From Candidatus Saccharicenans subterraneus (GTDB taxonomy: Bacteria > Acidobacteriota > Aminicenantia > Aminicenantales > Saccharicenantaceae), in contig QUAH01000006.1 of NCBI GenBank assembly GCA_003426165.1, positions 134,685 to 198,684 on the forward strand: a DNA stretch of 64,000 nucleotides, read 5' to 3'. Positions 41,542 to 64,000 of this stretch are shown in pieces. Below the pieces are notes generated by a model that was given only the letters and a program-made list of their open reading frames with translations, had not been told where the DNA came from and made no database searches. The stretch's first letter is position 1; each line of letters begins with the position of its first letter. Made by a program: the position numbers and the translations under genes.

Positions 41542-42744
<1,203 letters not shown>

Positions 42745-46462: not shown

Positions 46463-46704
46463 AAGTTAGAATTCTGGTCTCGCTCAAGGAAAGCGTTCTT
46501 GACCCTCAGGGACAGACGGTACGAAACGCCCTGCACACCCTGGGCTATCACCAGGTCAAAGATGTTCGCCAGGGAAAGGTGTTTGAAATCGACCTGGAAG
46601 GCCTGGACCGGGCTGAAGTCGAGAAGGTAATCCCGGAAATTGCCGACCGGGTGCTGGCCAATCCCATCATCGAAAAATTCAGCTGGGAAATACTGGAGGC
46701 CTGA
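46459..46704 (+). CDS. purS: Phosphoribosylformylglycinamidine synthase subunit PurS
   Basis: 81 aa. [34 protein letters not shown] overlap with purB. Confidence 0.9.
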
Positions 46705-46730
46705 AGGCCCGGCGGAGAAAGGATCCAAAG

Positions 46731-47504
46731 ATGAAATTTGGAGTGGTCGTTTTCCCGGGTTCCAACTGCGATTATGATACTTTCCATGCCCTGCAGAACG
46801 TCATGGGCCAGGAAACTGTCTTTCTCTGGCATAAAGACCATGACCTGCGAGGGGTGGACTGCGTGGTCCTGCCCGGTGGTTTTTCCTACGGAGATTACCT
46901 GCGTTCCGGAGCCATCGCCCGCTTCTCCCCCATCATGAGGGAGGTCAAGAAATTCGCCGATTCCGGAGGCCTGGTCCTTGGAATCTGTAACGGATTTCAG
47001 ATTCTGCTGGAAGCCGGGCTGCTTCCCGGAGCCATGCTCAGAAATAAGAATCTAAAGTTCCTCTGCCAGCACGTCCATATCCGAATCGAGAACAACCGGA
47101 CGGCTTTCAGCAGTGCCGGCCACAGGGGCCAGGTTCTCAGAATACCCATTGCCCATTTTGACGGGAATTATTACGCCCCGCCCGACCTTCTCTCAGAACT
47201 GGAAAAGAACAAACAGGTTGTATTCCGCTACTGCGACGAAAAAGGAAAACTGAGCGAGGAAGCCAACGTCAACGGTTCAGCCCACAGCATCGCCGGCCTC
47301 ATCAACCGCCAGGGCAACGTCCTGGGGATGATGCCCCACCCCGAAAGAGCTTCAGAAAAAATACTGGGCAGTGAGGACGGTAAAATAATCTTCAGCTCAA
47401 TGATTGACTATCTGGAGAAAAAAAGGGGAACCGGAAAGAAAAAGGCGACCCGGGCCGCCAGGCCTGCGGTGACACCTCTTCCGCCCCTTATCGGGACTTT
47501 TTGA
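46731..47504 (+). CDS. purQ: Phosphoribosylformylglycinamidine synthase glutaminase subunit PurQ
   Basis: [18 protein letters not shown]...GICNGFQIL (class I GATase Cys). Confidence 0.92.
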
Positions 47505-47514
47505 GGATACCATC

Positions 47515-49728: not shown

Positions 49729-49737
49729 GGGGGAAAA

Positions 49738-50376
49738 ATGGAACAGGAAGTATTCCGAAGCCCTAGGAAAAGGGGCAGAGTGGCAGTATTGCTTTCTGGC
49801 CGCGGCTCCAACTTCAGGGCCATTCATGAAGCCATGCTGGCCGGAAAGATAAACGCCGACATTGTGCTGGTATTCAGCAACAAGGCCGAGGCCCCGGGGC
49901 TGCAGACAGCCAGGGAGAGAGGCCTGGAAACTCTTCATCTGGACCCCAAGAGTTTCCCCAGCAAAGAGGCCTACGATGCAGCCATAGTCGAAGAGTTGAA
50001 AAAACGTGAAGTTGACCTGGTCTGCCTGGCCGGTTACATGAAAATAATCACCCCGCTTTTCTGCCAGGCTTTCAGGAACCGGATCATGAACATCCATCCG
50101 GCGCTTCTACCTTCGTTTCCTGGACTTCATGCCCAGAAACAGGCCGTTGATTACGGGGTGCGTTATTCCGGGGCCACCGTCCACTTCGTCTGGGAAGAGG
50201 TGGATGCCGGACCCATCATCTTGCAGGCCGTGGTTCCGGTCCACCAGGATGATACCGAGGAGACCCTGGCCGAGAGAATCCTGGAATGGGAACACAAGAT
50301 ATACCCCGAGGCGGTGCGTCTTTATTTTGAAGGCAGGCTGGAAGTGCGGGGTCGCAAAGTCTACATCATGGACTGA
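49738..50376 (+). CDS. purN: Phosphoribosylglycinamide formyltransferase
   Basis: VAVLLSGRGSNFRAI...NIHPALLPSFPG... Confidence 0.9.
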   Translation: MEQEVFRSPRKRGRVAVLLSGRGSNFRAIHEAMLAGKINADIVLVFSNKAEAPGLQTARERGLETLHLDPKSFPSKEAYDAAIVEELKKREVDLVCLAGYMKIITPLFCQAFRNRIMNIHPALLPSFPGLHAQKQAVDYGVRYSGATVHFVWEEVDAGPIILQAVVPVHQDDTEETLAERILEWEHKIYPEAVRLYFEGRLEVRGRKVYIMD

Positions 50377-51886: not shown

Positions 51887-52324
51887 ATGAACTTGGATAA
51901 GGCTGCGGCTGTCATCGAAGTTGCCAGCGAGCTCGGAGAAATTGAAGCCATCAAGAATTTCCTGGACCAAAATCTCCAGGCCCTGCCGGTAACCGAGGAA
52001 GAACATTTCCAGATCGAGCTGGCCCTGATTGAAATCTGCCTCAACATAATCCATTACGCCTACCCTGAAAACAGGGGCACAATCCAGGTAAGATTCTGGA
52101 CCGAGGGACCGCAGGTTTTCCTGGAGATTAGAGATAGCGGCGTACCTTTCGACCCCTCACAGTCGCCTACCCCGGACATAGAAGAGATCATCCGCAAAAG
52201 AAAAAAGGGCGGGCTGGGCATTTACCTCAGCCGGGAGTTGATGGACGGATTTTCCTATCGCCGGGATGGCGGACAGAACATTCTGCTGATGCACAAAAGG
52301 TTGTCCGCGGCCGAGGCTAACTGA
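51887..52324 (+). CDS. Anti-sigma regulatory factor / Ser-protein kinase of the RsbW/SpoIIAB type (HATPase_c fold)
   Basis: 145 aa. N-box-like ELALIEICLNIIHYAY. G-box GGLGIYLSRELMDGF. Confidence 0.65.
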   Translation: MNLDKAAAVIEVASELGEIEAIKNFLDQNLQALPVTEEEHFQIELALIEICLNIIHYAYPENRGTIQVRFWTEGPQVFLEIRDSGVPFDPSQSPTPDIEEIIRKRKKGGLGIYLSRELMDGFSYRRDGGQNILLMHKRLSAAEAN

Positions 52325-53152
52325 TCAGTACAGGACCGCGGCCTCGCCCTTTTCCTGGATGAGCTTATCTATGGCCTGAAGGATGAGCTCCTTCCGGGCC
52401 AGGACGGCGTTGATCTCATCATCAGTCAGGTACTCTCCGACGATACCTTTAATTAACTCAAAATTCAGGGCTTTTATTTTTTCCACGAAGGCCCGGGGCA
52501 GCTCGCTCATCGGCTTCGGACCCTCCCGGTGTTTTTCGGAGTAAATCAGGTTCTGGGTGAATTTTTTCCCGGTGCGGAAAGACCGAGAATGGTCAATCAG
52601 TATCATCCGCCAGTCGGCGGTTATCAAGATGTTGTTCATGTGGCGGTCTTCGTTGCCGATCAGGTTGTCAAAGGCCCTCTGCAGGTAAACGGCCCGGTTC
52701 CAGTTCATCAGCTTGATGGGTGGAGTCTTGATATTTTTCTCGGTCTTTTGTTTTAGGGTCATCTGGTAGTCAACCCAGATCTGGCAGGAACCACGGTTGT
52801 TATGAAACCTTCTTTCCACCGTGGGCGGGACCATGTTCAATTCCAGGTAATTATCCATCAGGTAAGCCGCTATTTCGTATTTCCAGCCTTCCACGAAACC
52901 CTTCAGGCGGCCTTCCGGGTTCTTCCAGAGAGCATTCCTGGTGATCCCGTCCTTTTCCAGGGTCAGTTTCCAGGGGCTGGTGACGGACTCCGGGCCGATT
53001 AGCTGCTCTTCATTGACAATGTTGGCCGTCCGCAAAAATTCTTCCCACCTGGCTCGCTCGGCCACCTCGTCCGGCGTGAACTGAGGAAATAACGGCAGGA
53101 AAAGAAGCAAGGCCACCGAAACCACGAAAAAGCCATAAAACTTTCTTCCCAT
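52325..53152 (-). CDS. Secreted PI3/PI4-kinase-fold protein, type II PI4-kinase-like, paralog 1
   Basis: Signal peptide. ALWKNPEG (Lys region), YLMDNYLELNMVPPTV, GSCQIWVDY, catalytic loop IGNEDRHMNNIL and activation segment ILIDHSRSF align with PI4KII motifs (AVFKPKNEEP, LVDQKLELNIVPRT, GSFQLFVEGY, IRNTDRGNDNWLI, AIDNGLAF). GAGGAGGG RBS. Confidence 0.6.
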   Translation of the reverse strand: MGRKFYGFFVVSVALLLFLPLFPQFTPDEVAERARWEEFLRTANIVNEEQLIGPESVTSPWKLTLEKDGITRNALWKNPEGRLKGFVEGWKYEIAAYLMDNYLELNMVPPTVERRFHNNRGSCQIWVDYQMTLKQKTEKNIKTPPIKLMNWNRAVYLQRAFDNLIGNEDRHMNNILITADWRMILIDHSRSFRTGKKFTQNLIYSEKHREGPKPMSELPRAFVEKIKALNFELIKGIVGEYLTDDEINAVLARKELILQAIDKLIQEKGEAAVLY

Positions 53153-53161
53153 ATTCCCTCC

Positions 53162-53995
53162 TCAATAAAGGACCTTGCCCTCGCCCACGACTTTGATCAT
53201 CTCGTCTATTTCCTTAAGTATTAAATCTTTGCGGGCCAGGACGGCCCTGATTTCTTTATCGGTCAGGTATGGCCCAACGGCCTGTTTGATGCTGTCAAAG
53301 GTCAGGGCCTTGATATTCTCCACCAGTTGCCTAGGCAATTTTCTGAAAGGCAGGGCCCGGCTATCAGCTCTTAACGGGTTTAGACCGAACAGGAGGTGCT
53401 TGGTATATTTTTCTTCTGACCGGAAGCTCCGGGAGTGGTCGATTAGTATGGTCCTCCAGTCCTTGGTATATAAGGTATTTTGCTGGGTGCGGTCCTCGTT
53501 GGCGATCAGGGCATCAAACACCCGGGAAATATATTTTCTCTTCTCCCAGTTATCGGCTTCCGGCCCGCTCGATGGCAGGGGGATATTCTTTTCCATCACC
53601 TGCAGCAGGCTGTATTCTTTCTCCACCCAGAGTTGCAGGGAGCCTCTCTGGCCCCTGAATACCCTCTCCACCGTTGGCGGGATCATGTTCAAGCCCAGCA
53701 GCTTGTCCAGCCGGTAGGCGGCAATTTCATACTGCCAGCCCTCGAGGAAGCCGCCCTGAATTCCGCTGGGGTTCTTCCAGACTCCGCTTCTTTCAACATC
53801 ACCTTTTTTGAGGAAAAGGCGAACCGGCTTGGTTACCCCCTCACCTATCTCTTTATAATCTATTATCTCCGCGGTCAGCAGAAATTCTTCCAGTTCCTCC
53901 CTCTGAGCTATTTCTTCTGGCCTAAACTGTGAAGACAGGGGCAGGTTCAGAACCAAGAGCAATAAACCAACGGCCAAAATCGCACTCTTTCTCAT
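53162..53995 (-). CDS. Secreted PI3/PI4-kinase-fold protein, type II PI4-kinase-like, paralog 2
   Basis: Signal peptide. GVWKNPSG, YRLDKLLGLNMIPPTV, GSLQLWVE, IANEDRTQQNTL, ILIDHSRSF. AAGGAG RBS. Confidence 0.6.
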   Translation of the reverse strand: MRKSAILAVGLLLLVLNLPLSSQFRPEEIAQREELEEFLLTAEIIDYKEIGEGVTKPVRLFLKKGDVERSGVWKNPSGIQGGFLEGWQYEIAAYRLDKLLGLNMIPPTVERVFRGQRGSLQLWVEKEYSLLQVMEKNIPLPSSGPEADNWEKRKYISRVFDALIANEDRTQQNTLYTKDWRTILIDHSRSFRSEEKYTKHLLFGLNPLRADSRALPFRKLPRQLVENIKALTFDSIKQAVGPYLTDKEIRAVLARKDLILKEIDEMIKVVGEGKVLY

Positions 53996-54007: not shown

Positions 54008-54853
54008 TTAATATAAGACTTCCCCCCGGCCATAGGCAGAAATCATCTCCTCGATTTCCTTCAGGATCAGGTCGCGGCGGGCCAGCACAGAATTTATCTC
54101 CCTGGTGGTCAGATAGGAACCCACCGCCTGCCTGATGCTATCAAAGGTCAGGGCCTTCAATCTTTCCACAAATTCGGCTGGCAATCGTTTGAACGGCAGT
54201 GGAATTCCGCCCGGGCGCAGGGGCCGCAGCCCGTACATAAGGTTGTTAGTAAAACGGGCATCGGACCTGAAACTGCGGGAGTGGTCAATAAGTATGGTCC
54301 GCCAGTCTTCAGTGAGCAGGGTATTCTGCAGGCTCCGGTCTTCGTTGGCAATCAGAGAATCAAAGGCCCGGGTCAGATACTGCATCCTTTCCAGGTTAAC
54401 CGCCTCCCACCCCTCCTTTGGCAACTGGATTTTATTATCGACAATTTCCAGAAGGTCGTACTTGTGTTCCACCCAGAGCTGTAAAGAGCCGCGCTGACCC
54501 TGGAACCTCCTTTCCACCGTGGGCGGGATGAGGTTTAAGCCAAGCAACTTATCCAGGCGGTAGGCGGCAATTTCATACTGCCAGCCCTCGTAGTAACCGT
54601 TGATTACTCCGCTCGGGTTCTTCCAGACGGCAGTCAGCTCTGTATCTCCCTTTTTCAAGTAAACCCGAATGGGCAGAGTGATGCCTTTGCCCAGGTCCCG
54701 AAAGCCGGTTATTCTCGCCTTCAGAAGGAATTCTTCCTGTTCGCCCCGCCGGGCTATTTCATCCGTTGTGAACTGGGCGCGGGAACTCGAAAATGACAAT
54801 AACAGAACAAAAGTGGCGGTTAGCAAGTTCCTGGCAGCCGTTTTTAACTGCAA
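54008..54853 (-). CDS. Secreted PI3/PI4-kinase-fold protein, type II PI4-kinase-like, paralog 3 (TTG start)
   Basis: Signal peptide. AVWKNPSG, YRLDKLLGLNLIPPTV, GSLQLWVE, IANEDRSLQNTL, ILIDHSRSF. GGGGA RBS before the TTG. Confidence 0.58.
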   Translation of the reverse strand: MQLKTAARNLLTATFVLLLSFSSSRAQFTTDEIARRGEQEEFLLKARITGFRDLGKGITLPIRVYLKKGDTELTAVWKNPSGVINGYYEGWQYEIAAYRLDKLLGLNLIPPTVERRFQGQRGSLQLWVEHKYDLLEIVDNKIQLPKEGWEAVNLERMQYLTRAFDSLIANEDRSLQNTLLTEDWRTILIDHSRSFRSDARFTNNLMYGLRPLRPGGIPLPFKRLPAEFVERLKALTFDSIRQAVGSYLTTREINSVLARRDLILKEIEEMISAYGRGEVLY

Positions 54854-54973: not shown

Positions 54974-55837
54974 GTGAAAGAGGGCGAACCAATGAAAAAA
55001 CTGTTACTTCTGCTTTCGTTTCTGGTATTTCTTTCTGGCTGTTCTTCTGACCGGTACGCTCCCACCATCCGCTTTCCTTACAAATGGCCGGGCACCCCGG
55101 GTTTTGGCGGCAATATCGATCAGCAAAACATACCCGAGCCTTCGGGTCTGTGCTTCCATCCGCAGCGAAAGACTCTATTTGTGGTCAGCGACGAGGGCTG
55201 GCTTTACGAAATAACAACTGACGGAGCTCCAATTTTCAGCCAGCGGATTCCGGGCGACCTGGAAGCCATTGCCATCAACCCCAGGACGGGCCTGGTTTAC
55301 GTTGTAATTGAAGGAGATGATATCATCCTTGAATATGACCCGGATCGGCACGAGGTTACCCGTAGATTCCCGGTCAACAGAGCCTTCAACGGCGACCTGA
55401 ACTTTCTGCAAAAACAGGTCGAGGAATACGACAACGGCCTGGAGGCGCTGGCTTTTGTCCCGGATGAAAAGCATCCCGAAGGCGGGACCTTTTATGCCGG
55501 GAACCAATGGGACCCGCCCTGTATAGTTGAAATCGAAGTCCCCCTGAAATCAAGCCAGGCCCGGGAGGCCGAAGCCAGAATTATCAGGGTCCTGCCTTTC
55601 AAAATAGACGACCCCGCAGCCATGATTTACGACGAGGAAACCAGGCTTCTGCATATAGGCAGCGATGCCGATAATATCCTGGTTGAGATAACACTCGACG
55701 GGAAACTGGTAAGAGAATACGCCTTTCCAGGCGATAACCAGGAAGGTCTGGCCTGGGATGATAAGGGATACCTTTATATAGCGCAGGACTCAGGGGGCAT
55801 AATAAAAATCCAGGACCTGAGGAAAAAACGATCCTGA
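54974..55837 (+). CDS. YjiK / SdiA-regulated-family beta-propeller lipoprotein
   Basis: Lipobox LSGC. EPSGLCFHP..KTLFVVSDEG, DLEAIAIN, NGLEALAFVP, EGLAWDDKGYLYIA repeats resembling the YjiK family. Confidence 0.5.
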   Translation: MKEGEPMKKLLLLLSFLVFLSGCSSDRYAPTIRFPYKWPGTPGFGGNIDQQNIPEPSGLCFHPQRKTLFVVSDEGWLYEITTDGAPIFSQRIPGDLEAIAINPRTGLVYVVIEGDDIILEYDPDRHEVTRRFPVNRAFNGDLNFLQKQVEEYDNGLEALAFVPDEKHPEGGTFYAGNQWDPPCIVEIEVPLKSSQAREAEARIIRVLPFKIDDPAAMIYDEETRLLHIGSDADNILVEITLDGKLVREYAFPGDNQEGLAWDDKGYLYIAQDSGGIIKIQDLRKKRS

Positions 55838-55870: not shown

Positions 55871-57274
55871 TCAGGACCTTTCCGACTGTGTCCTTGCCCT
55901 CAGTTTTTTATATTCGCGGATTATAAGAAAACACAGGGATATCCAGATCAACACTCCCAGGATATTAACCCGGGCGAACTTTTCCACGCCAAAGGCCAGG
56001 TAAGTCGTGCCCAGAAAAATTCCCAGGGCGGCAATCACATCCCCTCCCCTGACAAAAAAGGTGTCGATGGCCGCCTTGGCTTTATATTTTTCTTCCCTGG
56101 AAGTAATCAGAAAGAGGGCATGCTTGGTGGTGTTCATCAGCGAATAGTCGGTGCCGTTTTCCAGGGCCTTAACCCACTTGATCAAAAGGAGTGAGGCCCC
56201 GACCGCGATAAACCCATAACCACCCAGGGCGATAAAAGGAAAAATAAGAAGAGCCCCGCCCACGCCAATCCACCTGAAAATCCGCGAAACCAGAAAAAGC
56301 TGCAGCACCAGGGCAATCAGGTTGGTCAGCAACTGGTACTCGGCAAAAAATTTCCCTATATATTCTTTCAAATCCAGGCCGCCGGCCAGGCCCGCCGCCA
56401 CGGCCTGGGTGGCCGTTCGGGTTACCACGTTGCTCAGTATGTATTCTCCGGTGGCATTTATGAAATTATAAAGACCGATGACCAGGGCAATCAATAGAAG
56501 GTAGCGGCTCTTGAAAACCAGGCGGAACCCCCCGCCTTTTTTGAGTGGCTTTTCCTGTTCAATTTTCTTTTGCTCCAGCTCGACCGGGGACAGCCCCACC
56601 CTCACGATATGTTGCAACTCTCTCTTGTGAATATGAATGGCCAGCAGGATGCATAAGCCCAGAATGGCGGCCGAAACCAGCATCAGGCTGTAAAGGCCAA
56701 TGGGCCTGATCAACCAGCCTGCTAACCGGCTGCCGAAAACGGCCCCGGAAGTAGCCCCGAAAGCAATCAATGGAAACAGCCTCCGGCCTTCCTCATCAGA
56801 ATACAGGTCGTTGGCAAAACCCCAGAACTGGGCCGGAACCAGCAGGTTATAGATTCCGATCCAGATGAAAAAGATGATGCCCATAGTTCCGAGAGGAATG
56901 CCCACCATACTTAGAATATAGAAAATTATCAGGTTGGAGATAAAGAACAGAGTTACCCAGGTTATCAACAGATGTCTGGGAACCCGGGAAGCCAGGTAGC
57001 TGAAGGCTTTAATCACCAGTATAAGCAAAATGGCCTGGGCTCCGGCCAGGTAACTTTTTATTTCCGCCCCTTTGCCGGCCAGAATCAGCGCGTCCCGGAC
57101 GGGTTTGATTATGTAATAGGCCAGCAGCAACAGGAAGATATTAAAGGTCAGCAGCAAGGCCTTGGAAGCCTCTCCCGGCCTGATATCGGTAAAGAGCCTG
57201 AGCAGCCGGTAACCGGGAGGGCAGGCTCGCTCAGAGTCACTTTTCTGTTTCGGGTCTGGGCCAACCTCTTTCAT
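55871..57274 (-). CDS. TLC-family nucleotide (ATP/ADP) translocase homolog, about 12 TM
   Basis: Polytopic membrane protein. N-terminal ...LLTFNIFLLLLAYYIIKPVRDALIL... Signature GTDYSLMNTTKHALFLITSREEKYKAKAAIDTFFVRGGD resembles the conserved KVKGKAAIDV region of Tlc/NTT transporters. Confidence 0.55.
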   Translation of the reverse strand: MKEVGPDPKQKSDSERACPPGYRLLRLFTDIRPGEASKALLLTFNIFLLLLAYYIIKPVRDALILAGKGAEIKSYLAGAQAILLILVIKAFSYLASRVPRHLLITWVTLFFISNLIIFYILSMVGIPLGTMGIIFFIWIGIYNLLVPAQFWGFANDLYSDEEGRRLFPLIAFGATSGAVFGSRLAGWLIRPIGLYSLMLVSAAILGLCILLAIHIHKRELQHIVRVGLSPVELEQKKIEQEKPLKKGGGFRLVFKSRYLLLIALVIGLYNFINATGEYILSNVVTRTATQAVAAGLAGGLDLKEYIGKFFAEYQLLTNLIALVLQLFLVSRIFRWIGVGGALLIFPFIALGGYGFIAVGASLLLIKWVKALENGTDYSLMNTTKHALFLITSREEKYKAKAAIDTFFVRGGDVIAALGIFLGTTYLAFGVEKFARVNILGVLIWISLCFLIIREYKKLRARTQSERS

Positions 57275-57285
57275 TTCTCCCCCTG

Positions 57286-58101
57286 TTAATTTTTCTTCCT
57301 GGTAAACAGGATGGCTTCCTCGCCCTGTTCTTCTATCAATTTCTTTATTGCGGCTATTATAAGATCCTTCCTTTCGAGCAACGCTTCTATTTCCTGTTCG
57401 CTAAGGTAAGGCTTGAGTTTGTTGGTCAGCAGCCCGGGGTCCAGCCGGCTCAGGCTGTTAAACAATTCCCTGGAGCACCTGCGGATTGGACAGTCCGTAA
57501 GCAGCTCCGGAACCGGGGCGAAACTTTCAGAAAAATCAATTCGCCAGACCTGCCAGGTGTTCATGCTTATCAGGATGTCGTCCTGGTCCAGGCACTGGTC
57601 ATAAACCAGATTCTCGAAAACCACCACTTCGGCCAGGGCCTGCTGGAAAGCTTCTTCATCCGGCGGATTCAGTCCTTTCCTCTGCCGCTGGGCTTCGGTT
57701 ATTACCCCGGTCAGCATGACCTGCAGGGAACCGCTGCGGCCATCCAGCTTTCTGACCACCACAGGCGGCATGAGCTCCAGGTCGAGCAGCTTATTCAGCT
57801 CATAAGCAGCCAGCTCATAGAAATAGCTGTCCGGGATCATGGCCGGTCGGGGCCGGTGGACGTACTTAAAAATGGCCCGCCCTTTCATCCGTCCATCATC
57901 CAGGCTGACAACCCAGGGAGCAGTCCGGCCGCCGGCCTGTCCCTTGCTGACCCTGACCACCCTGGCCTTACTCAGGAAATTCTCCAACTGTTCCCGCTCC
58001 TTCTGATCACCAAATAAGTAATCTGAGGCAACCATAAAAAACCCCCAGACCATGGCCATCATTACCAGCCCTGTCTTAAATAAATTTTTATTATTTTCCA
58101 T
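57286..58101 (-). CDS. Secreted/anchored PI3/PI4-kinase-fold protein, type II PI4-kinase-like, divergent paralog 4
   Basis: Shares N-terminal REQLENFL, AIFKYVHRP (Lys), YELNKLLDLELMPPVV, GSLQVMLTG and ...RIDFSESF with paralogs 1-3. The catalytic loop is degenerate (CLDQDDILISMN). Start placed at the internal ATG at 58101 with a GGGGGA RBS. The track start at 58134 would overlap the upstream gene by 44 nt. Confidence 0.5.
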   Translation of the reverse strand: MENNKNLFKTGLVMMAMVWGFFMVASDYLFGDQKEREQLENFLSKARVVRVSKGQAGGRTAPWVVSLDDGRMKGRAIFKYVHRPRPAMIPDSYFYELAAYELNKLLDLELMPPVVVRKLDGRSGSLQVMLTGVITEAQRQRKGLNPPDEEAFQQALAEVVVFENLVYDQCLDQDDILISMNTWQVWRIDFSESFAPVPELLTDCPIRRCSRELFNSLSRLDPGLLTNKLKPYLSEQEIEALLERKDLIIAAIKKLIEEQGEEAILFTRKKN

Positions 58102-59143
58102 GGTTAATCCCCCACAGGGAGAACTGGCCGTCATTTATGATCAGAGCCCTCATATGACCGCCGTAGGCCCGGGAGATTCCTGTATCAACGATCCAGATCT
58201 TCCCCCCGAATCTTCTCATATCATTGATGGTCAGGACCAGGCGAGGAGTATGGGCCACTATGATCTGCCTGGCCTCCAGGTTATTCAGGATACGGTCAAC
58301 CTGTTCCTCTGAAACGCTGCCATTGGCCAGGGCCAGCTCCCGGTACCAGAGAGGCCCGTTGCTCCTGTAGACAATTTCCAGTTTCATATCAGTCGGAGGC
58401 GACAGGTTCAGAATCGCTTTCTGAAAGACCGAGAGTTCATACCGGAGCCTGTTGTTTATGTCTTCAAGTTTCCACTTTGAGAATTCTTCGCTTATACCAC
58501 CGTGAACGAAGACGGTGTCATTAATCTTTATGACAGCATTCTTACGGGCAATCCATTTTCCGTATTTCTGGTTAAAATTGATCAGGTATTTTTGCCTGGC
58601 TTCCTGGTCAAAATCTATTACTTCCTGCCAGAGGCGTCTGATATCCCTCCCCCTCCTGGCCTTCTTTTCCAGCTCTTTCTGCTTCCTGGCCAGGTAATCC
58701 TCTGGAAGAAACGAGATAAACTGCTCAACGGTAACATAATCCTCATAATCGAAGGCGATCCCGGTGATGTTCATTTCTTCGTGATTGCCGATCAACATCT
58801 GCACCTGACCGCCGGCAGCTTCGGCCTCCGTTTCCAGCTTGCGAATTAAGTCAAAGATCTTGCGGGCATCGGGACCGCGGTCCAGGACATCTCCGGTCTG
58901 AACCAGAAAAGCCTGTCCACCCTTCCAGCTCAAGCTGGAATCAACCAGTCCTACCCCCTTCAGTATCTCGACAAAATGCTCGTAATCGCCGTGCAGGTCC
59001 CCGACCACCACGATCTTTTCCACCCCGCTCCAGCGGCAGGGAATTTGCTCGGCGGGAAGAACAGGCCGGGTCAGCCAGACCAGCCAAAGCAGTAAATAGA
59101 GAACCTTCTGGCCAGCCCTTTTTCTCTGGAAGATTTTATTCAT
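58091..59143 (-). CDS. Secreted PPP-family metallophosphatase (calcineurin-like / ApaH-like Ser/Thr phosphatase fold)
   Basis: Signal peptide. GDLHGD, GDVLDRG, GNHE signature triplet. Confidence 0.7.
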   Translation of the reverse strand: MNKIFQRKRAGQKVLYLLLWLVWLTRPVLPAEQIPCRWSGVEKIVVVGDLHGDYEHFVEILKGVGLVDSSLSWKGGQAFLVQTGDVLDRGPDARKIFDLIRKLETEAEAAGGQVQMLIGNHEEMNITGIAFDYEDYVTVEQFISFLPEDYLARKQKELEKKARRGRDIRRLWQEVIDFDQEARQKYLINFNQKYGKWIARKNAVIKINDTVFVHGGISEEFSKWKLEDINNRLRYELSVFQKAILNLSPPTDMKLEIVYRSNGPLWYRELALANGSVSEEQVDRILNNLEARQIIVAHTPRLVLTINDMRRFGGKIWIVDTGISRAYGGHMRALIINDGQFSLWGINHGK

Positions 59144-59313
59144 GAAATCTCACCCGGGGTAACCATCATTGCCGCTTTCCCCTGTTCTTATCCTACTTTC
59201 TTCCTATACCTAAACGTCCTTAAAGTCAAATAAAATTCGTTGCTGCCGGGCAAAAAAATTATTTATTTTGCATAAAAAACATATTAGAATAAATTGTGGA
59301 AAGGGGAATTATC

Positions 59314-59607
59314 ATGATTGCCCGAGTAACTATTTTTCACGTCAAGCCAGAGAAGGTAGAAGAGGCCATCAAGCTTTACGAAACCAGCGTCATCCCGGAC
59401 GCCAAGAAGCAAAACGGCTTCGCCGGAGGATATCTCCTCACCGACCGGGCCAGTGGCCGGGGAATGTCCCTGACCTTCTGGCAAACCCAGGAAGACGTCA
59501 CGGCCAGCGAAGAGAACCTTCACTACCAGCAGCAGCTGCTCAAATTTCTGGAAATGTTTGCCTCTCCGCCCATCAAGGAACAATACGCCATCAGCCTTGA
59601 GTTTTAA
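59314..59607 (+). CDS. Small ABM/Dabb-like (dimeric alpha+beta barrel) protein
   Basis: 97 aa from the ATG at 59314 (AAGGGGAA RBS 5 nt upstream). MIARVTIFHVKPEKVEEA... pattern typical of antibiotic-biosynthesis-monooxygenase-like stress proteins. Confidence 0.4.
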   Translation: MIARVTIFHVKPEKVEEAIKLYETSVIPDAKKQNGFAGGYLLTDRASGRGMSLTFWQTQEDVTASEENLHYQQQLLKFLEMFASPPIKEQYAISLEF

Positions 59608-59685: not shown

Positions 59686-60033
59686 GTGAAAATATCAACC
59701 AGAGAAATTAACGACATTCTGATCGTCGACATCGAGGGAGAAATCAGGAGGTCAGACATCACCGACATGACCCTCCATCAATGGATCAAGCAGCAACTGG
59801 AAAGGGGCAAAAGGAAAATCTTGCTCAACTTCGAAAAGGTAGAATTCATCGACAGCTTCGGCGTGGGCGAAATCCTGGCCAGTTACATCTCGGCCAACAA
59901 CCTCGGCGGTAAGCTGAAGCTGGTCAGGATTTCCAAGAAGCTCTACCTGATCTTCCAGGTAACCATGCTGACCAGGGTGCTGGAAATATATGACGACGAA
60001 CAGGTGGCCCTGGAGAGCTTTTTCAAAGAGTGA
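59686..60033 (+). CDS. STAS-domain anti-sigma-factor antagonist (SpoIIAA/RsbV-like)
   Basis: 115 aa. ILIVDIEGEI..., conserved IDSFGVGEIL (phosphorylatable Ser region). Confidence 0.7.
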   Translation: MKISTREINDILIVDIEGEIRRSDITDMTLHQWIKQQLERGKRKILLNFEKVEFIDSFGVGEILASYISANNLGGKLKLVRISKKLYLIFQVTMLTRVLEIYDDEQVALESFFKE

Positions 60034-60061
60034 GTCTCCCTCCTGTCGCGGGGAATAAGAA

Positions 60062-62539
60062 TTGACAGATGAACCCAGCCGGCTCCACGGGTTCCTTTCC
60101 CGCCTGGTGGAGATCAAGCCGGGAGAGGAAAGAATTACCCTTTTACTTTTCTTCTATTTTTTCCTGATCACTGCCGCCTACTCGATCATAAAATCCCTGA
60201 GGGTGGCCAGCTATCTGGACTCCCTGGGGGCTGATAAACTCCCCCTGGCCTATCTCCTGACCGCCGTGTCGATCGGCCTGGTGGTAGCCATTCATTCCAA
60301 ACTCCAGGCCAGCTTATCCAGGTTAAACCTTATAATTTTCAGCCTGGCCTTTTTCATCCTGACGGCGGTGTTATTCTGGCTGCTGTTCAGCCTCGGCTGG
60401 GCCTGGCTATCCCTGGCTTATTACATCTGGGCCAATATATTTCTGGCCGTGGTCATCACCCAGTTCTGGATAGTGGTCAACGATATTTTCAACCCCAGGG
60501 AAACCAAGCGCCTGGTGGGCCTTTTCGGAAGCGGCGGTATCCTGGGGGGCATCCTGGGAGGCGAAGCTACCGGACTCATGGCCAGGGCCAGTGTTGATAC
60601 CAGACTTCTTTTTCTGGCCTGCGGTTTTCTGCTTCTAACCATTGTTGTGGTCTACCTGATAGCTGACTGGCAAAAGAGATCGGGCCGGGGACCTTCTCAA
60701 GACTCCACAGAATCCACCCAACAGAACGGGAAGACCGAGCGGGTGGGATTCAGGGAGTGCCTGCGGACTGTTATCGGACAGCGTTACTTCCGGCTGCTGG
60801 CCGGCGGCATAGCCCTGAGCCTGATAGTCTCCACCTTTATCGACTGGCAGTTCAGCAAGGTGGTCGAAGGAACAGCCAGCCTTGGAGACAGACTGACCTC
60901 GTTCTTCGGGCATTTCAATGCCGGCCTGCTGGTGGTAGCCTTTTTCATTCAACTTTTCCTTACCAGCCGGTTTGTCCAGAAATTCGGGATCAGGTTTTCT
61001 TTCCTTATCTATCCTTCAGTCCTGATCATAGTTCTGACCGGGTTAACCGCGCTGCCAGCCAGCCTGCTGATGGCCCTGACTCTGAAGGCCTCTGATAAGA
61101 GTCTTTCCTATACCCTGAATCAATCCGTCAGGGAACTGCTCTACATCCCGGTTTCCCCCGAGGTCAAATACAAGGCCAAGATCTTCATTGACATGTTCCT
61201 CAACCGCTTTGCCAAGGGGCTGGGAGGGGTCCTGCTGATGGCCCTTCTCTACTTCAGCCTCAATCTTCGTTTTATCAGCCTGGTGACCATCCTGTTGATC
61301 CTGGGCTGGATGGCGGTCAATCTCCAGGTCACCAGGGAATACGCGGCCGTGGTCAGGAATAAATTAAAAAAGAAGTGGGACCGGGCCGAAAAGGCAGTGG
61401 CCGAGCAACTGGACCTGGACTACCTGAAACTGGCCTTTGACACCCTGGACACTCGCCGGCGAAGCCGGGAACTTCTGGCCATGGACATATTTGACCTCAT
61501 GAAGCAAGATAAACTCCGCCCTGAATTAAAAGAGCTGCTTACCTCAAACCTTTCTGAACCCGGGGTTTCCTCGCTCGGTACCCTGTTTGAAGAAGAAGCC
61601 CTGGCCCTGTCTGAATGGCCCGCGGGTGAGAACGAAGACCTCCTTAAAAAGGAAGTGGATGAAATTCTGTCCCTGGAAGCCTACCAGGAACTTATAAAGG
61701 AATATATCCGAAGAGTCGTGGCGGATAAGAAGCCCGGCACAGAAATTATGAGGATGGAAGCAGCCAAGCTCTTCAGCCTGATGCCAGCGAACTTCGTGCC
61801 GGCCGAGGAACTGGCCGAGTTACTCGGGGATGAATCGCCAGAGGTCAGCCGCCTGGCCATGGACAGCGCTGCCCGGTCCGGGCAGAAGGAACACCTAGAA
61901 ACCATCATCAGAAAACTGAAGGATCCGGTGACCAGAGAGGACGCCGTCTCGGCCCTTCTAACCTTCGGCTCCAAAATTACCGGCACTCTGTCGGATTACC
62001 TCGAAGTCGAGGAACTGGACCTTGAGGTCAAGAAGGCCATAATAAACGTTCTCTCGCGGATGGCCACCCAGGAAGCCGCCGACCTGCTGGCCCTCGAGCT
62101 TCAGAAAAATCAGCCGGAGCTTGATGGGGAACTGATTGAGGCCCTGGACAGGATTCATCATCTTAAACCCGAAATATCAATCCCGGCAGAAATCTCAAGG
62201 AAGAAATTAAAAGAGGAAATAGAGAGGCATTGTCAGCTATTGCTGGCAACGCTGGATAGCCAAGGGCCACTTGGGGAGGAAGCAGAAAAAGAGCTGGTCC
62301 GGTCCCAGTCGGATATTTTCAAATTACTCGGGTTTCTCTATCCCGGGGATGACATCAGCCGGGCCTGGCAGAATTTCCGGACCGGAACCAAAGACTCCAG
62401 AGCCTACGCCCTCGAACTCCTCGATAATATTCTGATTAAATCCGACCGGGAGATGGTTCTGCCGCTGCTGGAAGATCTGCCACCCTCGGACCGGTTAAAA
62501 AGAGTTCGAACCCTGCTTGATGAATTGGGAAAAACATAG
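60062..62539 (+). CDS. TLC-family nucleotide translocase homolog fused to C-terminal HEAT/PBS-lyase-like repeat domain (825 aa, TTG start)
   Basis: N-terminal 430 aa polytopic, with SDKSLSYTLNQSVRELLYIPVSPEVKYKAKIFIDMF (TLC signature region) paralogous to the 55871-57274 protein. The C-terminal 390 aa consist of repeated LLxDxxPxVRxxAxxAL-type alpha-helical repeats. Confidence 0.55.
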   Translation: MTDEPSRLHGFLSRLVEIKPGEERITLLLFFYFFLITAAYSIIKSLRVASYLDSLGADKLPLAYLLTAVSIGLVVAIHSKLQASLSRLNLIIFSLAFFILTAVLFWLLFSLGWAWLSLAYYIWANIFLAVVITQFWIVVNDIFNPRETKRLVGLFGSGGILGGILGGEATGLMARASVDTRLLFLACGFLLLTIVVVYLIADWQKRSGRGPSQDSTESTQQNGKTERVGFRECLRTVIGQRYFRLLAGGIALSLIVSTFIDWQFSKVVEGTASLGDRLTSFFGHFNAGLLVVAFFIQLFLTSRFVQKFGIRFSFLIYPSVLIIVLTGLTALPASLLMALTLKASDKSLSYTLNQSVRELLYIPVSPEVKYKAKIFIDMFLNRFAKGLGGVLLMALLYFSLNLRFISLVTILLILGWMAVNLQVTREYAAVVRNKLKKKWDRAEKAVAEQLDLDYLKLAFDTLDTRRRSRELLAMDIFDLMKQDKLRPELKELLTSNLSEPGVSSLGTLFEEEALALSEWPAGENEDLLKKEVDEILSLEAYQELIKEYIRRVVADKKPGTEIMRMEAAKLFSLMPANFVPAEELAELLGDESPEVSRLAMDSAARSGQKEHLETIIRKLKDPVTREDAVSALLTFGSKITGTLSDYLEVEELDLEVKKAIINVLSRMATQEAADLLALELQKNQPELDGELIEALDRIHHLKPEISIPAEISRKKLKEEIERHCQLLLATLDSQGPLGEEAEKELVRSQSDIFKLLGFLYPGDDISRAWQNFRTGTKDSRAYALELLDNILIKSDREMVLPLLEDLPPSDRLKRVRTLLDELGKT

Positions 62540-62548
62540 GCGTTGACA

Positions 62549-64000
62549 ATGAGCCAGAACAGAACATATCGCCTGCTATCTCGGCTGGTGGATATCAGAC
62601 CGGAAGAAGTCACCCCTTCTTTGCTGATGTTCTTTTATTTTTTTCTTATTCAGGTTTCTGCTTACATCATTGAGCCCGTAAAGATTTCACTTTACCTGAG
62701 ATGGCTGACCGCCGACCGCCTCCCCTATGCCTACCTGCTGTCGGCCCTGTTGATCGGGCTGGCCGTAGCCTTCAATTCCGAGTTACTCCAGAGAATCAGG
62801 AGATCATATTACCTGGCCTTTAGTCTGCTGTTTTTCATTTCGACCCTGATTCTCTTCTGGTTTCTCTTTCGGATTCACTGGCCCTGGCTGTCGCTGATCT
62901 ACTGGTTCTGGTCCGACCTGTTCATGGTTACCACCACCACCCAGTTCTGGATCATGGTCAATGACCTTTACCATCCGCACCAGGCCAAGCGACTCATTGG
63001 CTTCCTGGTCAGTGGTGGCCTGCTGGGAGGCGTGAGCGGAGCCCTGCTGGCCTCGCGCCTGGCCAGGCACCTCGGCACGGAAAATCTTCTTCTGATCTGC
63101 CCGGTTCTTCTGCTGTTCTGCCTGGTCATCATCTATTTTTATGCCAGGCTGCCAGGCAAGGAAGAGAAACAGTCCACCGCCTCTGGCGCCAGGAGCTCTC
63201 CCCTGGCCACCTGGCGGGAAATCCGGTCCAGCCGTTACCTGTCCCTTCTGGCGGCCATCGTAGCCCTGGGCATGATCATAACCACCCTGGTGGACTTTCA
63301 GTTTGTTTCGGTAGTTGGTTCAAGATTTACCGAACAGGACGCCAGGACCTCTTTCCTGGGCAGTTTTCTGACAGTCCTTCTGGTTTTTTCCTATCTTCTT
63401 CACGTGACCATGACGACCAGGATTTTAAGGCAGTCCGGCCTCCGGCTGGCCCTGCTCATCGCTCCCGCTTTCCTGCTACTAAGCTCGCTGGCCATCTTCT
63501 TTGTTCCGGCCACCTATTTGATTTACTGGGCGGTCCTTATCAAAGGAACCGACAAGAGTCTAAGCTATTCACTCAACCAATCGGTCCGGGAATTACTTTA
63601 CGTCCCGGTCTCGCCGGAAATTAAGTACCGGGCCAAAGTTTTCATCGACATGTTTGTTTCCAAGTTTGCCAAGGGCTTTAGCTCCATCATTCTTCTGGTC
63701 GGTTTCACTCTTCTGCATTTCAACCTCAAGCAGATAAGCCTGGTTACCGTTGCCTTCATCATTCTCTGGTTTATGTTCAACCTGGAAATTGCCCGTGAAT
63801 ACGTTAATACCGTCAAGAAAAACTTAAAAATAAAATGGCAGGATGCCCACCTGGTTATCAATGAGAAGATCGACCTAGACCTGACCAAGCTGGTCTTTGA
63901 TACCCTGGAGAGCAAGAAGCGAAGCTCCGTTCTCTATGCCATGAACCTGATGAACCTGCTGAAGACCGAGAAATTGAGCCCTGAACTGAAAGAGATAATA
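62549..64000 (+). CDS. Second TLC-family translocase homolog (HEAT-fusion paralog), 3' end truncated by the window edge
   Basis: MSQNRTYRLLSRLVDIRPEEV... parallels the N-terminus of the preceding gene. TDKSLSYSLNQSVRELLYVPVSPEIKYRAKVFIDMF signature. No stop before the window end. Confidence 0.5.
   Translation, partial: MSQNRTYRLLSRLVDIRPEEVTPSLLMFFYFFLIQVSAYIIEPVKISLYLRWLTADRLPYAYLLSALLIGLAVAFNSELLQRIRRSYYLAFSLLFFISTLILFWFLFRIHWPWLSLIYWFWSDLFMVTTTTQFWIMVNDLYHPHQAKRLIGFLVSGGLLGGVSGALLASRLARHLGTENLLLICPVLLLFCLVIIYFYARLPGKEEKQSTASGARSSPLATWREIRSSRYLSLLAAIVALGMIITTLVDFQFVSVVGSRFTEQDARTSFLGSFLTVLLVFSYLLHVTMTTRILRQSGLRLALLIAPAFLLLSSLAIFFVPATYLIYWAVLIKGTDKSLSYSLNQSVRELLYVPVSPEIKYRAKVFIDMFVSKFAKGFSSIILLVGFTLLHFNLKQISLVTVAFIILWFMFNLEIAREYVNTVKKNLKIKWQDAHLVINEKIDLDLTKLVFDTLESKKRSSVLYAMNLMNLLKTEKLSPELKEII

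Follow-up and report, generated by a model that had tools for sequence, protein, structure and literature searches.

A conserved Aminicenantes gene cluster places NTT-HEAT transporter genes beside STAS, RsbW-like and putatively exported kinase-like proteins

Three related transporters at one locus

The window, a stretch of 64,000 nucleotides from Candidatus Saccharicenans subterraneus, encodes three paralogous polytopic proteins, as a first-pass annotation had proposed. Transporter A (60062-62539, forward strand) is a TLC-HEAT protein of 825 aa with a TTG start. Its paralog B (62549-64000, forward strand) opens with ATG, and 484 aa are visible before the window ends. Transporter C (55871-57274, reverse strand) is a stand-alone TLC-type protein of 467 aa without a HEAT domain. 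In pairwise comparisons, A shares 43% identity with B (493 aa, E 2e-124) and 29% with C (437 aa, E 1e-31), and the paralogy of all three lies far beyond chance. The signature motif reported for the three proteins was recovered as DKSLSYTLNQSVRELLYIPVSPEVKYKAKIFIDMF in A, as DYSLMNTTKHALFLITSREEKYKAKAAIDTFF in C and as an S/V/I/R variant in B. Non-ATG or weak-RBS starts had been suggested for both A and B, and a non-ATG start is correct for A only. The TTG at 60062 is the sole in-frame start of A from the stop at 60056-60058 to the conserved N-terminus, and the ATG of B at 62549 lies 9 nt past the stop of A. Orthologs of C share 61-96% identity across Aminicenantes.

The predicted layout of A comprises a 12-helix TLC/NTT-type domain (~aa 23-440), a low-confidence linker (441-524) and a HEAT-like alpha-solenoid (525-825). 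Pfam TLC (PF03219, gathering score 21 bits) matches A, B and C at 68.7, 44.4 and 60.4 bits, respectively. The earlier TLC assignment thus stands by gathering score for all three, but B fits MFS_1 better (60.0 bits; A 38.6 bits). Among solved structures, the ATP/ADP translocators CpNTT1 and AtNTT1 match best, in sequence as well as in fold. A profile of 67 A homologs matches CpNTT1 at E 2e-23 and AtNTT1 at E 5e-18, and a C profile matches CpNTT1 at E 1.8e-13 and the A family by hhalign at E 1e-43. Foldseek searches with the AlphaFold (AF2) model of A return the ATP- or ADP-bound NTT1 structures 9j3n, 9j3l and 9j3m at the top (TM-score to target 0.69-0.74), followed by MFS carriers of lipids, choline and drugs (NorA, FLVCR1, SPNS2 and MFSD2A). 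Charged or polar positions in common with NTT1 include EAKR after the FW...N motif, D261 (aligned to E), K346, E358, K373, D377 and R382, and P363 is shared as well. Transport-type motifs are strongly kept in both halves of the membrane domain among more than 1,000 family clusters. The lysine right before a conserved tyrosine in both solved NTT1s (TKY/AKY) is replaced by serine in A and B and by an invariant aspartate in C, hence the substrate could differ. Scores against TIGR00769, the model of canonical NTP/NDP exchangers, reach 41-61 bits, far under the cutoff of 387.

The proposed HEAT extensions found support in both A and B. As a single sequence, A matches Pfam HEAT_2 at 25.0 bits, slightly below the 27.7 cutoff. 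The profile of A homologs matches designed HEAT-like alphaRep proteins (E 2e-16 to 1e-4, positions 551-705), and AlphaFold modelling yields a confident helical solenoid over residues 525-825, behind the long linker. Only the first ~60 residues of the B extension fall within the window. B is judged to be HEAT-bearing because its ortholog at locus L207 (94% identity, 832 aa) aligns end to end with A at 41% identity. The central loop (8 K/R) and the first 40 residues past the last membrane helix (9 K/R) are K/R-rich, which, together with the homology to 12-helix NTT1, suggests a cytoplasmic location for the HEAT domain in A and B. HEAT repeats act as scaffolds for protein-protein interaction (PMC5381601). 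By architecture, an NTT/TLC-type domain of MFS fold joined to a HEAT solenoid, A and B belong to the published NTT-HEAT family, with C as a HEAT-less relative. The family counts more than 11,000 cluster representatives across free-living phyla.

Gene content and conservation of the cluster

The transporter genes are part of a conserved Aminicenantes cluster of ~12 kb with two halves. The first half runs from a STAS gene through one or two TLC-HEAT genes to a FHA-GAF-PP2C phosphatase gene, and includes an RsbW-like kinase. The STAS anti-sigma-factor antagonist of RsbV/SpoIIAA type (59686-60033, forward strand, 115 aa; Pfam STAS 48.4 bits) ends 28 nt upstream of A and exceeds the TIGR00377 cutoff of 53.45 at 62.8 bits. 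Its S57 lies inside the conserved IDSFG motif, at what we take to be the position phosphorylated in SpoIIAA and RsbV of B. subtilis. The RsbW/SpoIIAB-type serine kinase (51887-52324, forward strand, 145 aa; Pfam HATPase_c_2 98.2 bits) is encoded at the far cluster end. Among NCBIfam models it fits RsbW best, with 44 bits, which is under the cutoff of that model. The gene is kept at the same position in L001-L003, L005, L006, L207 and most loci centred on kinase-like genes. In L207, which is collinear with the window, an FHA-GAF-SpoIIE (PP2C) gene lies directly 3' of B. The partner-switching set is complete, with no sigma factor gene within the cluster.

Several proteins with a Fam20C/PI4K-like kinase fold (four in the window, K1-K4) are encoded in the second half, along with a putatively exported metallophosphoesterase, a lipoprotein of beta-propeller type and C. 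K1 (52325-53152, reverse strand, 275 aa) retains the intact K/E/DRHxxN/IDH catalytic set, and its AF2 model (pLDDT 88) best matches Fam20C (5yh0, E 1.7e-8) and PI4KII-beta in Foldseek. Its paralogs K2 (53162-53995, reverse strand, 277 aa) and K3 (54008-54853, reverse strand, 281 aa) share 51% and 47% identity with it. K2 weakly matches Pfam Fam20C, PI3_PI4_kinase and HipA_2, and reaches 46.6 bits against TIGR03843, under the cutoff. In the alignment of K proteins, K77, E93 and D187 of K1 are invariant and D169-R170 near-invariant. The divergent K4 (57286-58134, reverse strand), directly upstream of C, shares 28% identity with K1 and scores 25 bits against TIGR03843. It has YDQCLDQDD in place of the NEDRHxxN catalytic loop, and is probably inactive and pseudokinase-like. 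Against Pfam Fam20C the K proteins score 17-18 bits, below the cutoff, and the fold is as near to PI4K type II and the bacterial SCO1664 family as to Fam20C.

The calcineurin-like, PPP/ApaH/PrpE-like metallophosphoesterase (58091-59143, reverse strand, 350 aa; Pfam Metallophos 51.4 bits) has weak NCBIfam matches to ApaH, PrpE and protein phosphatase, and heads a co-directional run through K4 to C. The lipoprotein (54974-55837, forward strand), conserved in the cluster, is an SdiA-regulated/phytase-like beta-propeller with an LSGC lipobox (Phytase-like 48.1, SdiA-regulated 44.8 and LPAM_1 20.7 bits). A small ABM-fold protein (59296-59607, forward strand; Pfam ABM 26.1 bits) is encoded between the Metallophos and STAS genes, and is found in many cluster versions and missing from some. 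Hydrophobic N-termini are common to the metallophosphoesterase, the lipoprotein and all K proteins, unlike the cytoplasmic STAS and RsbW-like proteins. This hydrophobicity and a conserved ...AQ|F junction suggest that the K proteins are exported.

The linkage of STAS and TLC-HEAT genes is tight across related loci. A TLC-HEAT gene follows on the same strand, at -4 to +43 nt, in 32 of the 33 STAS genes detected, and the remaining one is cut by its locus edge. STAS precedes 23 of the 24 A-type genes with room upstream, and the gene preceding B-type genes is A in 15 cases and STAS in four. Even L004, from a distant genome in which the surrounding genes are otherwise unrelated, retains the STAS-TLC-HEAT pair. 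The genes for STAS, TLC-HEAT, PP2C and RsbW form a single co-directional run in seven loci. With conserved STAS, RsbW-like and PP2C genes on either side of A and B, the earlier suggestion that transport is regulated or partner-docked gains strength.

Among 24 metagenome loci that are centred on K genes and span 12 kb or more, 23 contain TLC-family genes, in two differing gene orders. The cluster is retained without C in L001, L129 and L180, and L181 has two K genes without TLC genes. The link between transporter, kinase and phosphoesterase recurs in two other acidobacterial classes. Vicinamibacteria encode a TLC-HEAT-cNBD protein followed by K and Metallophos genes with a 4-nt overlap, and Thermoanaerobaculia encode a signal-peptide-Metallophos-K fusion directly 3' of TLC-HEAT. 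All of the evidence on STAS and kinase context is drawn from a single phylum, Acidobacteriota. Members of ~940 aa in Bacteroidota and several other phyla instead have two class-A beta-lactamase-like genes as neighbours (34 of 75 upstream, 21 of 56 downstream). These flanking enzymes require no ATP, and the data thus give no support to one nucleotide substrate shared by the entire family. Genes for a secreted nuclease (SNase) or PhoX adjoin family members at single loci elsewhere.

Relation to known systems

The NTT-HEAT architecture is already known. Major, Embley and Williams described such fusions in 2017 in GBE, with one Aminicenantes sequence in their data set (PMC5381601). The published proteins likewise combine an N-terminal TLC/NTT domain and C-terminal HEAT_2 or PBS-type repeats in one polypeptide, are widespread among free-living bacteria, and include the NTT-HEAT-cNBD form carried by the Vicinamibacteria relatives. 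The associated module in that paper is cyclic-nucleotide-binding domains, whereas here it is the STAS, RsbW-like and PP2C set, and the transporter is present as the tandem duplicates A and B plus a third copy that lacks HEAT. Our literature search returned no paper tying NTT-HEAT to STAS or partner switching, and the gene context of the cluster appears new to the literature searched.

CpNTT1 of Chlamydia pneumoniae (9j3n/9j3o) and AtNTT1 of the Arabidopsis plastid (9j3j/9j3l/9j3m) share with A, B and C the MFS-like 12-helix fold and the FW..N...EAKR, (K)S..Y, E..YIP and K.K..ID motifs. Identity is only 17-20%, and the KY lysine differs. Canonical NTTs are also without the extra 390-aa HEAT domain of A and B, and the host here is free-living.

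The regulatory genes cover all three roles of the RsbV-RsbW-RsbU and SpoIIAA-SpoIIAB-SpoIIE modules. The antagonist is a STAS protein that keeps the conserved serine, the serine kinase is of GHKL type (HATPase_c_2), and the phosphatase is a SpoIIE-type PP2C whose FHA and GAF domains are sensory; some genomes hold the three genes in one operon. They differ in that the cluster has no sigma factor and in having one or two TLC-HEAT genes between the STAS and phosphatase genes, the transporters being the putative target of the switch. STAS domains are also known from transporters, C-terminal in SulP/SLC26 carriers and as MlaB in the MlaFEDB lipid transporter. There as here, the gene for a small STAS protein or domain is linked to that of a membrane transporter, which STAS presumably regulates. 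In those systems, however, STAS either forms part of the carrier polypeptide or binds an ABC ATPase, with no kinase/phosphatase pair encoded alongside, while here it is separate, probably phosphorylatable, and adjoins a HEAT-bearing carrier of MFS fold.

In eukaryotes, Fam20C and the pseudokinase Fam20A obtain luminal ATP from an ER/Golgi ATP/ADP exchanger. The parallel is one of functional analogy only. The K1 model best matches Fam20C, the seemingly inactive K4 sits beside putatively active paralogs, and K proteins with predicted export signals are encoded alongside a nucleotide-carrier homolog. The similarity of K proteins to Fam20C is marginal though, and the carrier here is from another transporter family.

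Candidate functions of the transporters

Our best hypothesis, put forward tentatively, is regulated nucleotide exchange that feeds exported kinases, with a HEAT-docked STAS switch as the gate. The TLC-type proteins would exchange nucleotides across the inner membrane, with cytoplasmic ATP moving outward and ADP, with or without phosphate, moving inward. The exchanged ATP would be the phosphate donor for exported kinases in a compartment otherwise without ATP, and the metallophosphoesterase might reverse or trim their phosphorylation. In A and B, STAS may gate transport by docking on the HEAT solenoid; the RsbW-like kinase would add phosphate to STAS, and the FHA-GAF-PP2C phosphatase would remove it. 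A cyclic-nucleotide-binding domain, either fused or encoded next door, could serve for such regulation in other lineages. How ATP reaches the Gram-negative periplasm is stated as unknown (PMC7432876). The function of NTT-HEAT is also stated as unknown in PMC5381601, which reports cNBD adjacent or fused in other lineages and whose text contains neither "periplasm" nor "export". Counting against this hypothesis are the low TIGR00769 scores, the better MFS_1 match of B, the replaced KY lysine, the beta-lactamase-like flanks of Bacteroidota-type members, the three loci without C, the K genes without TLC in L181, and the restriction of the context evidence to one phylum. If the hypothesis is true, the transporters supply the periplasm with nucleotides under regulation, rather than serving energy parasitism.

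A and B could instead be regulated MFS-type carriers of a non-nucleotide solute, such as an envelope or cell-wall-related compound, which we regard as possible though somewhat unlikely. Control through HEAT by STAS, RsbW-like and PP2C proteins would be kept, and the exported kinase-like proteins would use another phosphate donor and act on the solute or on envelope components. The MFS_1 preference of B, the structural neighbours next to NTT1, the loss of the KY lysine and the beta-lactamase-like flanks all favour such a solute. Nucleotide carriers are nevertheless the nearest solved relatives in sequence and fold, with many charged motif positions in common, and exported kinases whose catalytic set is intact require a nucleotide as donor. 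To our knowledge, all characterised TLC-family members transport nucleotides or NAD.

It is unlikely that A and B are sensors ("transceptors") relaying a membrane ligand through HEAT and the partner-switching proteins to an unlinked output, for example a sigma factor. The cluster does hold a full partner-switching set and encodes no output protein, the HEAT repeats are of a scaffold type, and a long low-confidence linker parts the two domains of A. Against this stand the strongly kept transport-type motifs, the HEAT-less C retained in the same cluster, and the linkage to exported kinase and phosphoesterase genes also where the STAS system is absent.

Scavenging of environmental nucleotides from lysed cells or eDNA by a free-living fermenter seems improbable. 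The exported metallophosphoesterase, with its weak ApaH/PrpE likeness, and the phytase-like lipoprotein could process extracellular phosphoesters, and the occasional SNase or PhoX neighbours would fit. This reading, however, leaves three exported kinases with intact catalytic residues and a pseudokinase without a role, and genes for de novo purine synthesis are present. Canonical NTTs are mostly obligate exchangers, not net importers.

The first-pass annotation took the threefold expansion as characteristic of energy-parasitic or host-associated bacteria. Ca. Saccharicenans and Aminicenantes are generally described as free-living anaerobes. Import of host ATP or nucleotides would fit the homology to ATP/ADP translocases of Chlamydia and plastids and database names such as "Npt1/Npt2 family nucleotide transporter" and "AAA family ATP:ADP antiporter", but it is very improbable and largely refuted: the nearest named relatives are Ca. 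Saccharicenans and Aminicenantes MAGs, a 4.43 Mb Aminicenantes chromosome (L042) carries the same STAS and tandem pair, purB, purQ, purL and purN (the pur genes of the window had already been raised as an argument against full auxotrophy) are adjacent in the window and the collinear L207 has a purS call between the first two, TIGR00769 scores are far too low, and the family spreads over free-living phyla. Major et al. also rejected the energy-parasite conclusion for NTT-HEAT (PMC5381601).

Transporters A, B and C and the NTT-HEAT family

Three paralogous TLC/NTT-type membrane proteins are encoded in the window, as the first-pass annotation had proposed: A (60062-62539, plus strand, 825 aa), B (62549-64000, plus strand, 484 aa visible before the window end) and C (55871-57274, minus strand, 467 aa). 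A shares 43% identity with B over 493 aa (E 2e-124) and 29% with C over 437 aa (E 1e-31). All three score above the gathering score of 21 bits for Pfam TLC (PF03219; A 68.7, B 44.4, C 60.4). Membership of the MFS rather than of TLC was not borne out overall, as TLC is passed by all three. MFS_1 is also matched by A, B and C, and B, in which MFS_1 outscores TLC, appears to resemble a generic MFS protein as much as a TLC protein. Non-ATG or weak-RBS starts had been suggested for both A and B. The non-ATG remark holds for A, where TTG is the sole in-frame start after a stop at 60056-60058, and fails for B, which starts with ATG 9 nt past the stop of A.

In the proposed comparison with chlamydial nucleotide transporters, CpNTT1 is the best PDB match both by profile and by fold. 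The AlphaFold2 model of A, built with 67 homologs (mean pLDDT 77), contains a confident membrane domain at about residues 23-440, a low-confidence linker (441-524) and a confident all-helical solenoid (525-825). The best Foldseek matches in the PDB are the CpNTT1/AtNTT1 ATP/ADP translocators 9j3n, 9j3m and 9j3l (E 1e-9 to 5e-9, target TM-score 0.69-0.74), with other MFS carriers ranking behind. The model thus points to an MFS-like 12-helix fold closest to the solved NTT structures. The A-family profile matches CpNTT1 at E 2e-23 and AtNTT1 at E 5e-18. Among the charged NTT1 positions compared by motif, most (EAKR, D/E261, K346, E358, K373 and D377) are shared, and the lysine ahead of a conserved Tyr is not. 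The idea that C lies nearer to canonical NTTs than A and B do was rejected, as the C profile matches CpNTT1 at E 1.8e-13 only, and C is nearer to the A family (hhalign E 1e-43) than to CpNTT1. Two Aminicenantes loci (L179 and L199) carry two tandem HEAT-less C-type transporters (467 and 470 aa, 470 and 460 aa) within the kinase half of the cluster.

The proposed HEAT-type C-terminal extension was recovered in A and, through orthologs, in B, most of whose own extension falls beyond the window end. A alone scores 25.0 bits against HEAT_2, just below the 27.7 cutoff. The HEAT reading stands despite this because positions 551-705 of the A-family profile match designed HEAT-like alphaRep proteins (E 2e-16 to 1e-4), in line with the modelled solenoid. 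Homologs of A carry precomputed PF13646 assignments. The ortholog of B on a collinear Candidatus Saccharicenans contig (L207) matches the visible 484 aa at 94% identity, has a length of 832 aa and aligns with A along its whole length at 41% identity. The copy of B at another locus (L001) reaches 34.0 bits for HEAT_2, above the same cutoff. K/R-rich flanks and the homology to NTT1 suggest that the solenoid is cytoplasmic.

The architecture of A and B, in which a single polypeptide joins a TLC domain to C-terminal HEAT repeats, is that of the already known NTT-HEAT fusions. Major, Embley and Williams (2017) described these fusions as monophyletic and widespread in free-living bacteria, often with an adjoining or fused cyclic-nucleotide-binding domain (cNBD) and of unknown function (PMC5381601). 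The family, to which no function has been assigned, extends to cyanobacteria, Chlamydia and a wide range of environmental phyla; one Aminicenantes sequence was part of the data set (PMC5381601). Among Pfam domains, neighbouring genes and the L207 contig, no cNMP_binding domain was found in or beside A or B; the domain is present in the Vicinamibacteria relatives L058 and L073. Homologs of A come from Candidatus Saccharicenans and Aminicenantes and bear the names "Npt1/Npt2 family nucleotide transporter" or "ATP/ADP translocase/HEAT repeat protein". An exhaustive search with A returned 11,155 cluster representatives (50% identity) at E <= 1e-3, of which 1,398 pass E <= 1e-30. No stretch of the protein alignment was conserved enough for a cross-phylum scan of species genomes, which hence relied on a degenerate DNA pattern for QFW...R[EQ]AKRL.G. 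Its matches belong to Acidobacteriota, Bacteroidota, Desulfobacterota, Ignavibacteria, Myxococcota and other phyla, nearly all of them lying in open reading frames of 830-1300 aa where the gene was complete within its block.

In Bacteroidota, Ignavibacteria, Desulfobacter and others, TLC-HEAT proteins of about 940 aa form a subfamily (L008, L011, L012, L016, L019 and some 30 further genome loci) whose gene neighbourhood is conserved and distinct. A Beta-lactamase2 (PF13354) gene of about 305-335 aa lies directly upstream on the same strand in 34/75 loci, and a second one of about 415 aa lies downstream in 21/56.

The partner-switching set around A and B

A is preceded by a STAS gene (59686-60033, plus strand) encoding 115 aa and ending 28 nt before A. 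Its product matches the anti-sigma-antagonist family TIGR00377 at 62.8 bits (cutoff 53.45). Serine S57 in the motif IDSFG is conserved in every ortholog, and we take its position to be that of the residue phosphorylated in SpoIIAA and RsbV. The opposite end of the cluster carries the gene for an RsbW-type serine kinase (51887-52324, plus strand; HATPase_c_2 98.2 bits), whose best NCBIfam match, RsbW, stays below the equivalog cutoff. The set is completed beyond the window end by an FHA-GAF-SpoIIE (PP2C) phosphatase, which has 561 aa in L207 and follows B directly there and in other relatives. A further ortholog (L003) scores 176.6 bits for SpoIIE.

The linkage of STAS and TLC-HEAT genes was counted in loci obtained by three independent routes. 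In 32/33 cases, a same-strand TLC-HEAT gene begins -4 to +43 nt after the STAS gene, the exception being cut off by the edge of its locus. STAS precedes 23/24 A-type genes; upstream of B-type genes lies A in 15 cases and STAS in 4. At one locus (L004), the STAS-TLC-HEAT pair is kept although the neighbourhood is otherwise unrelated, and seven metagenome loci show the order STAS, TLC-HEAT, PP2C, RsbW on a single strand. In none of the loci inspected does the cluster include a sigma-factor gene. We infer that the target of the RsbW-like kinase is the TLC-HEAT protein. Outside Aminicenantes, no STAS gene was found beside family members (narrow STAS HMM 0/81), and Pfam assigned STAS to 3/75 upstream neighbours, all three from Aminicenantes. 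The STAS link is therefore lineage-specific rather than a family-wide rule.

TLC-HEAT genes, some in tandem, also occur in bins labelled "uncultured Eubacteriales" (L032, L035, L039, L065, L067 and L105). An Aminicenantes-type STAS gene lies upstream in L035, L039 and L065, and a matching PP2C gene is present in L032, L039, L065 and L105. The taxonomic labels of these six MAGs look doubtful. Within the window, the closest regulator of the sigma type has no relation to the partner-switching set, which lacks a sigma factor. This regulator comprises a zf-HC2 anti-sigma-factor-like protein (43800-44402, minus strand) and an upstream 193-aa open reading frame (44404-44985, minus strand), which may encode its ECF sigma factor partner.

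Kinase-like proteins, phosphoesterase and lipoprotein

Between the RsbW-like and STAS genes lie C, four paralogs of about 280 aa (K1, 52325-53152; K2, 53162-53995; K3, 54008-54853; K4, 57286-58134, minus strand), an SdiA-regulated/phytase-like lipoprotein with an LSGC lipobox (54974-55837) and a calcineurin-like metallophosphoesterase (58091-59143). The metallophosphoesterase heads a tight minus-strand run that continues with K4 and C; these three are the last minus-strand genes.

Pfam scores of the K proteins are marginal only. The K1 model (pLDDT 88) has the secretory kinase Fam20C as best Foldseek match (E 1.7e-8), together with PI4KII-beta (E 2e-6). In K1-K3 and their homologs, K77, E93 and D187, the last being the Asp of IDH, show no variation, and at least 90% of the aligned sequences keep the NEDRHxxN loop (D169-R170). 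The model and these residues argue for a protein-kinase-like fold of the Fam20C and PI3-PI4 kinase branch with an intact catalytic set in K1-K3. K4 has lost the DRH loop, YDQCLDQDD replacing NEDRHxxN, and its gene is conserved beside C. K4 would be a pseudokinase-like partner, which recalls Fam20A alongside Fam20C.

The N-termini of K1-K4, the phosphoesterase and the lipoprotein consist of a basic followed by a hydrophobic segment, with a 12-mer Kyte-Doolittle hydropathy of 2.2-3.2 in the K proteins. In K1-K3 and homologs, the segment closes with a conserved AQ|F junction. The STAS and RsbW-like proteins have no such segment. Based on the N-terminal hydrophobicity and, for K1-K3, the junction, the K proteins and the phosphoesterase are predicted to be extracytoplasmic. 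A PADLOC search for anti-phage defence returned no match among eight cluster proteins.

Of the K-centred metagenome loci that span 12 kb or more, 23/24 contain TLC-family genes, arranged in two different gene orders. The link recurs in other classes, all gene-context support coming from Acidobacteriota. Vicinamibacteria have a K gene that overlaps the end of a TLC-HEAT-cNBD gene (1301 aa) by 4 nt and precedes a metallophosphoesterase gene. In Thermoanaerobaculia, a single open reading frame directly downstream of TLC-HEAT fuses a metallophosphoesterase to a K-type domain (L093:4523-6715, L028:2741-5137), with a signal-peptide-like segment at its start in L093. Such a Rosetta-stone fusion unites two genes that are separate in the window cluster. 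Some K paralogs are not linked to the cluster. K-type genes at L181 (20.8 kb), L142 and L146 have no TLC, STAS, RsbW-like or metallophosphoesterase gene within the fetched DNA.

Possible roles of the cluster

Exported kinases with an intact catalytic set would need a nucleotide donor outside the cytoplasm. C, as well as A and B under control of the switch, might release cytoplasmic ATP and take up periplasmic ADP in return. STAS or the RsbW-like kinase could dock on the HEAT solenoid, and the cNBD could have the same regulatory role in other lineages. We tentatively regard regulated ATP/ADP exchange by A, B and C feeding the putatively exported kinases as the most economical reading. A further proposal, unlikely as it stands, is that the whole cluster serves a free-living diderm bacterium as a system dedicated to periplasmic phosphorylation. 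In such a system, the NTT-type C and the switch-gated A and B would export ATP against ADP, and the Fam20C/PI4K-like kinases with their pseudokinase partner would consume it. The exported metallophosphoesterase would reset the modification, and the sigma-less partner-switching module would govern ATP delivery through the HEAT domain.

A and B might instead be regulated carriers of another solute, which we consider possible and rather doubtful. The lysine preceding a conserved Tyr in NTT1 (TKY/AKY in 9j3n/9j3j) is replaced by Ser in A and B and by Asp in C, and the MFS-like character of B fits such a role. The class-A beta-lactamase-like flanks of the 940-aa subfamily argue against a single substrate for the whole family. 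The co-encoded carriers are nevertheless homologous to ATP/ADP exchangers. A role of A and B as sensors is improbable, and scavenging of nucleotides by the transporters is still less probable. Energy parasitism, which the first-pass annotation had read from the TLC expansion, is rejected as highly improbable given scores far below the cutoff of 387 for the canonical NTP/NDP exchangers of the "AAA" family (TIGR00769; A 55.2, B 41.5, C 61.4 bits), the adjacent purine biosynthesis genes, a 4.43 Mb Aminicenantes chromosome with STAS and a tandem TLC-HEAT pair (L042), and a family common in free-living phyla. The genes purB, purQ, purL and purN sit immediately upstream of tyrS and the cluster (45170-50376, plus strand), an order shared by L207, where purS is also called between purB and purQ.

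The first-pass annotation thus combined a known architecture with a wrong ecological conclusion. The locus is noteworthy because it links orphan transporters with a partner-switching set that lacks a sigma factor and with predicted exported kinase-fold enzymes, and literature searches found no paper describing the combined NTT-HEAT, partner-switching and kinase cluster. The Aminicenantes cluster offers two handles on the family, a specific regulator (the STAS partner-switching set in place of the cNBD of other lineages) and specific clients (the phosphoesterase along with the predicted exported kinase-fold proteins). How ATP enters the Gram-negative periplasm was called unknown in a 2020 review (PMC7432876). 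If the carriers export ATP, they would answer how ATP reaches this compartment and show secretory-type kinases operating outside the bacterial cytoplasm. A true periplasmic phosphorylation system would constitute the first defined entry route for ATP to the periplasm of a bacterium and would give the large, still orphan NTT-HEAT family a role. If the carriers do not export ATP, a correction remains, namely that TLC-family expansions are no marker of energy parasitism.

Elsewhere in the window, two EF-Tu (tuf) genes lie 16 kb apart (25271-26473 and 41542-42744, both minus strand). They share 94.8% DNA and 99% protein identity, and the similarity ends within about 10-20 bases of the gene ends. 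The tuf copies are kept nearly identical while their flanks differ.
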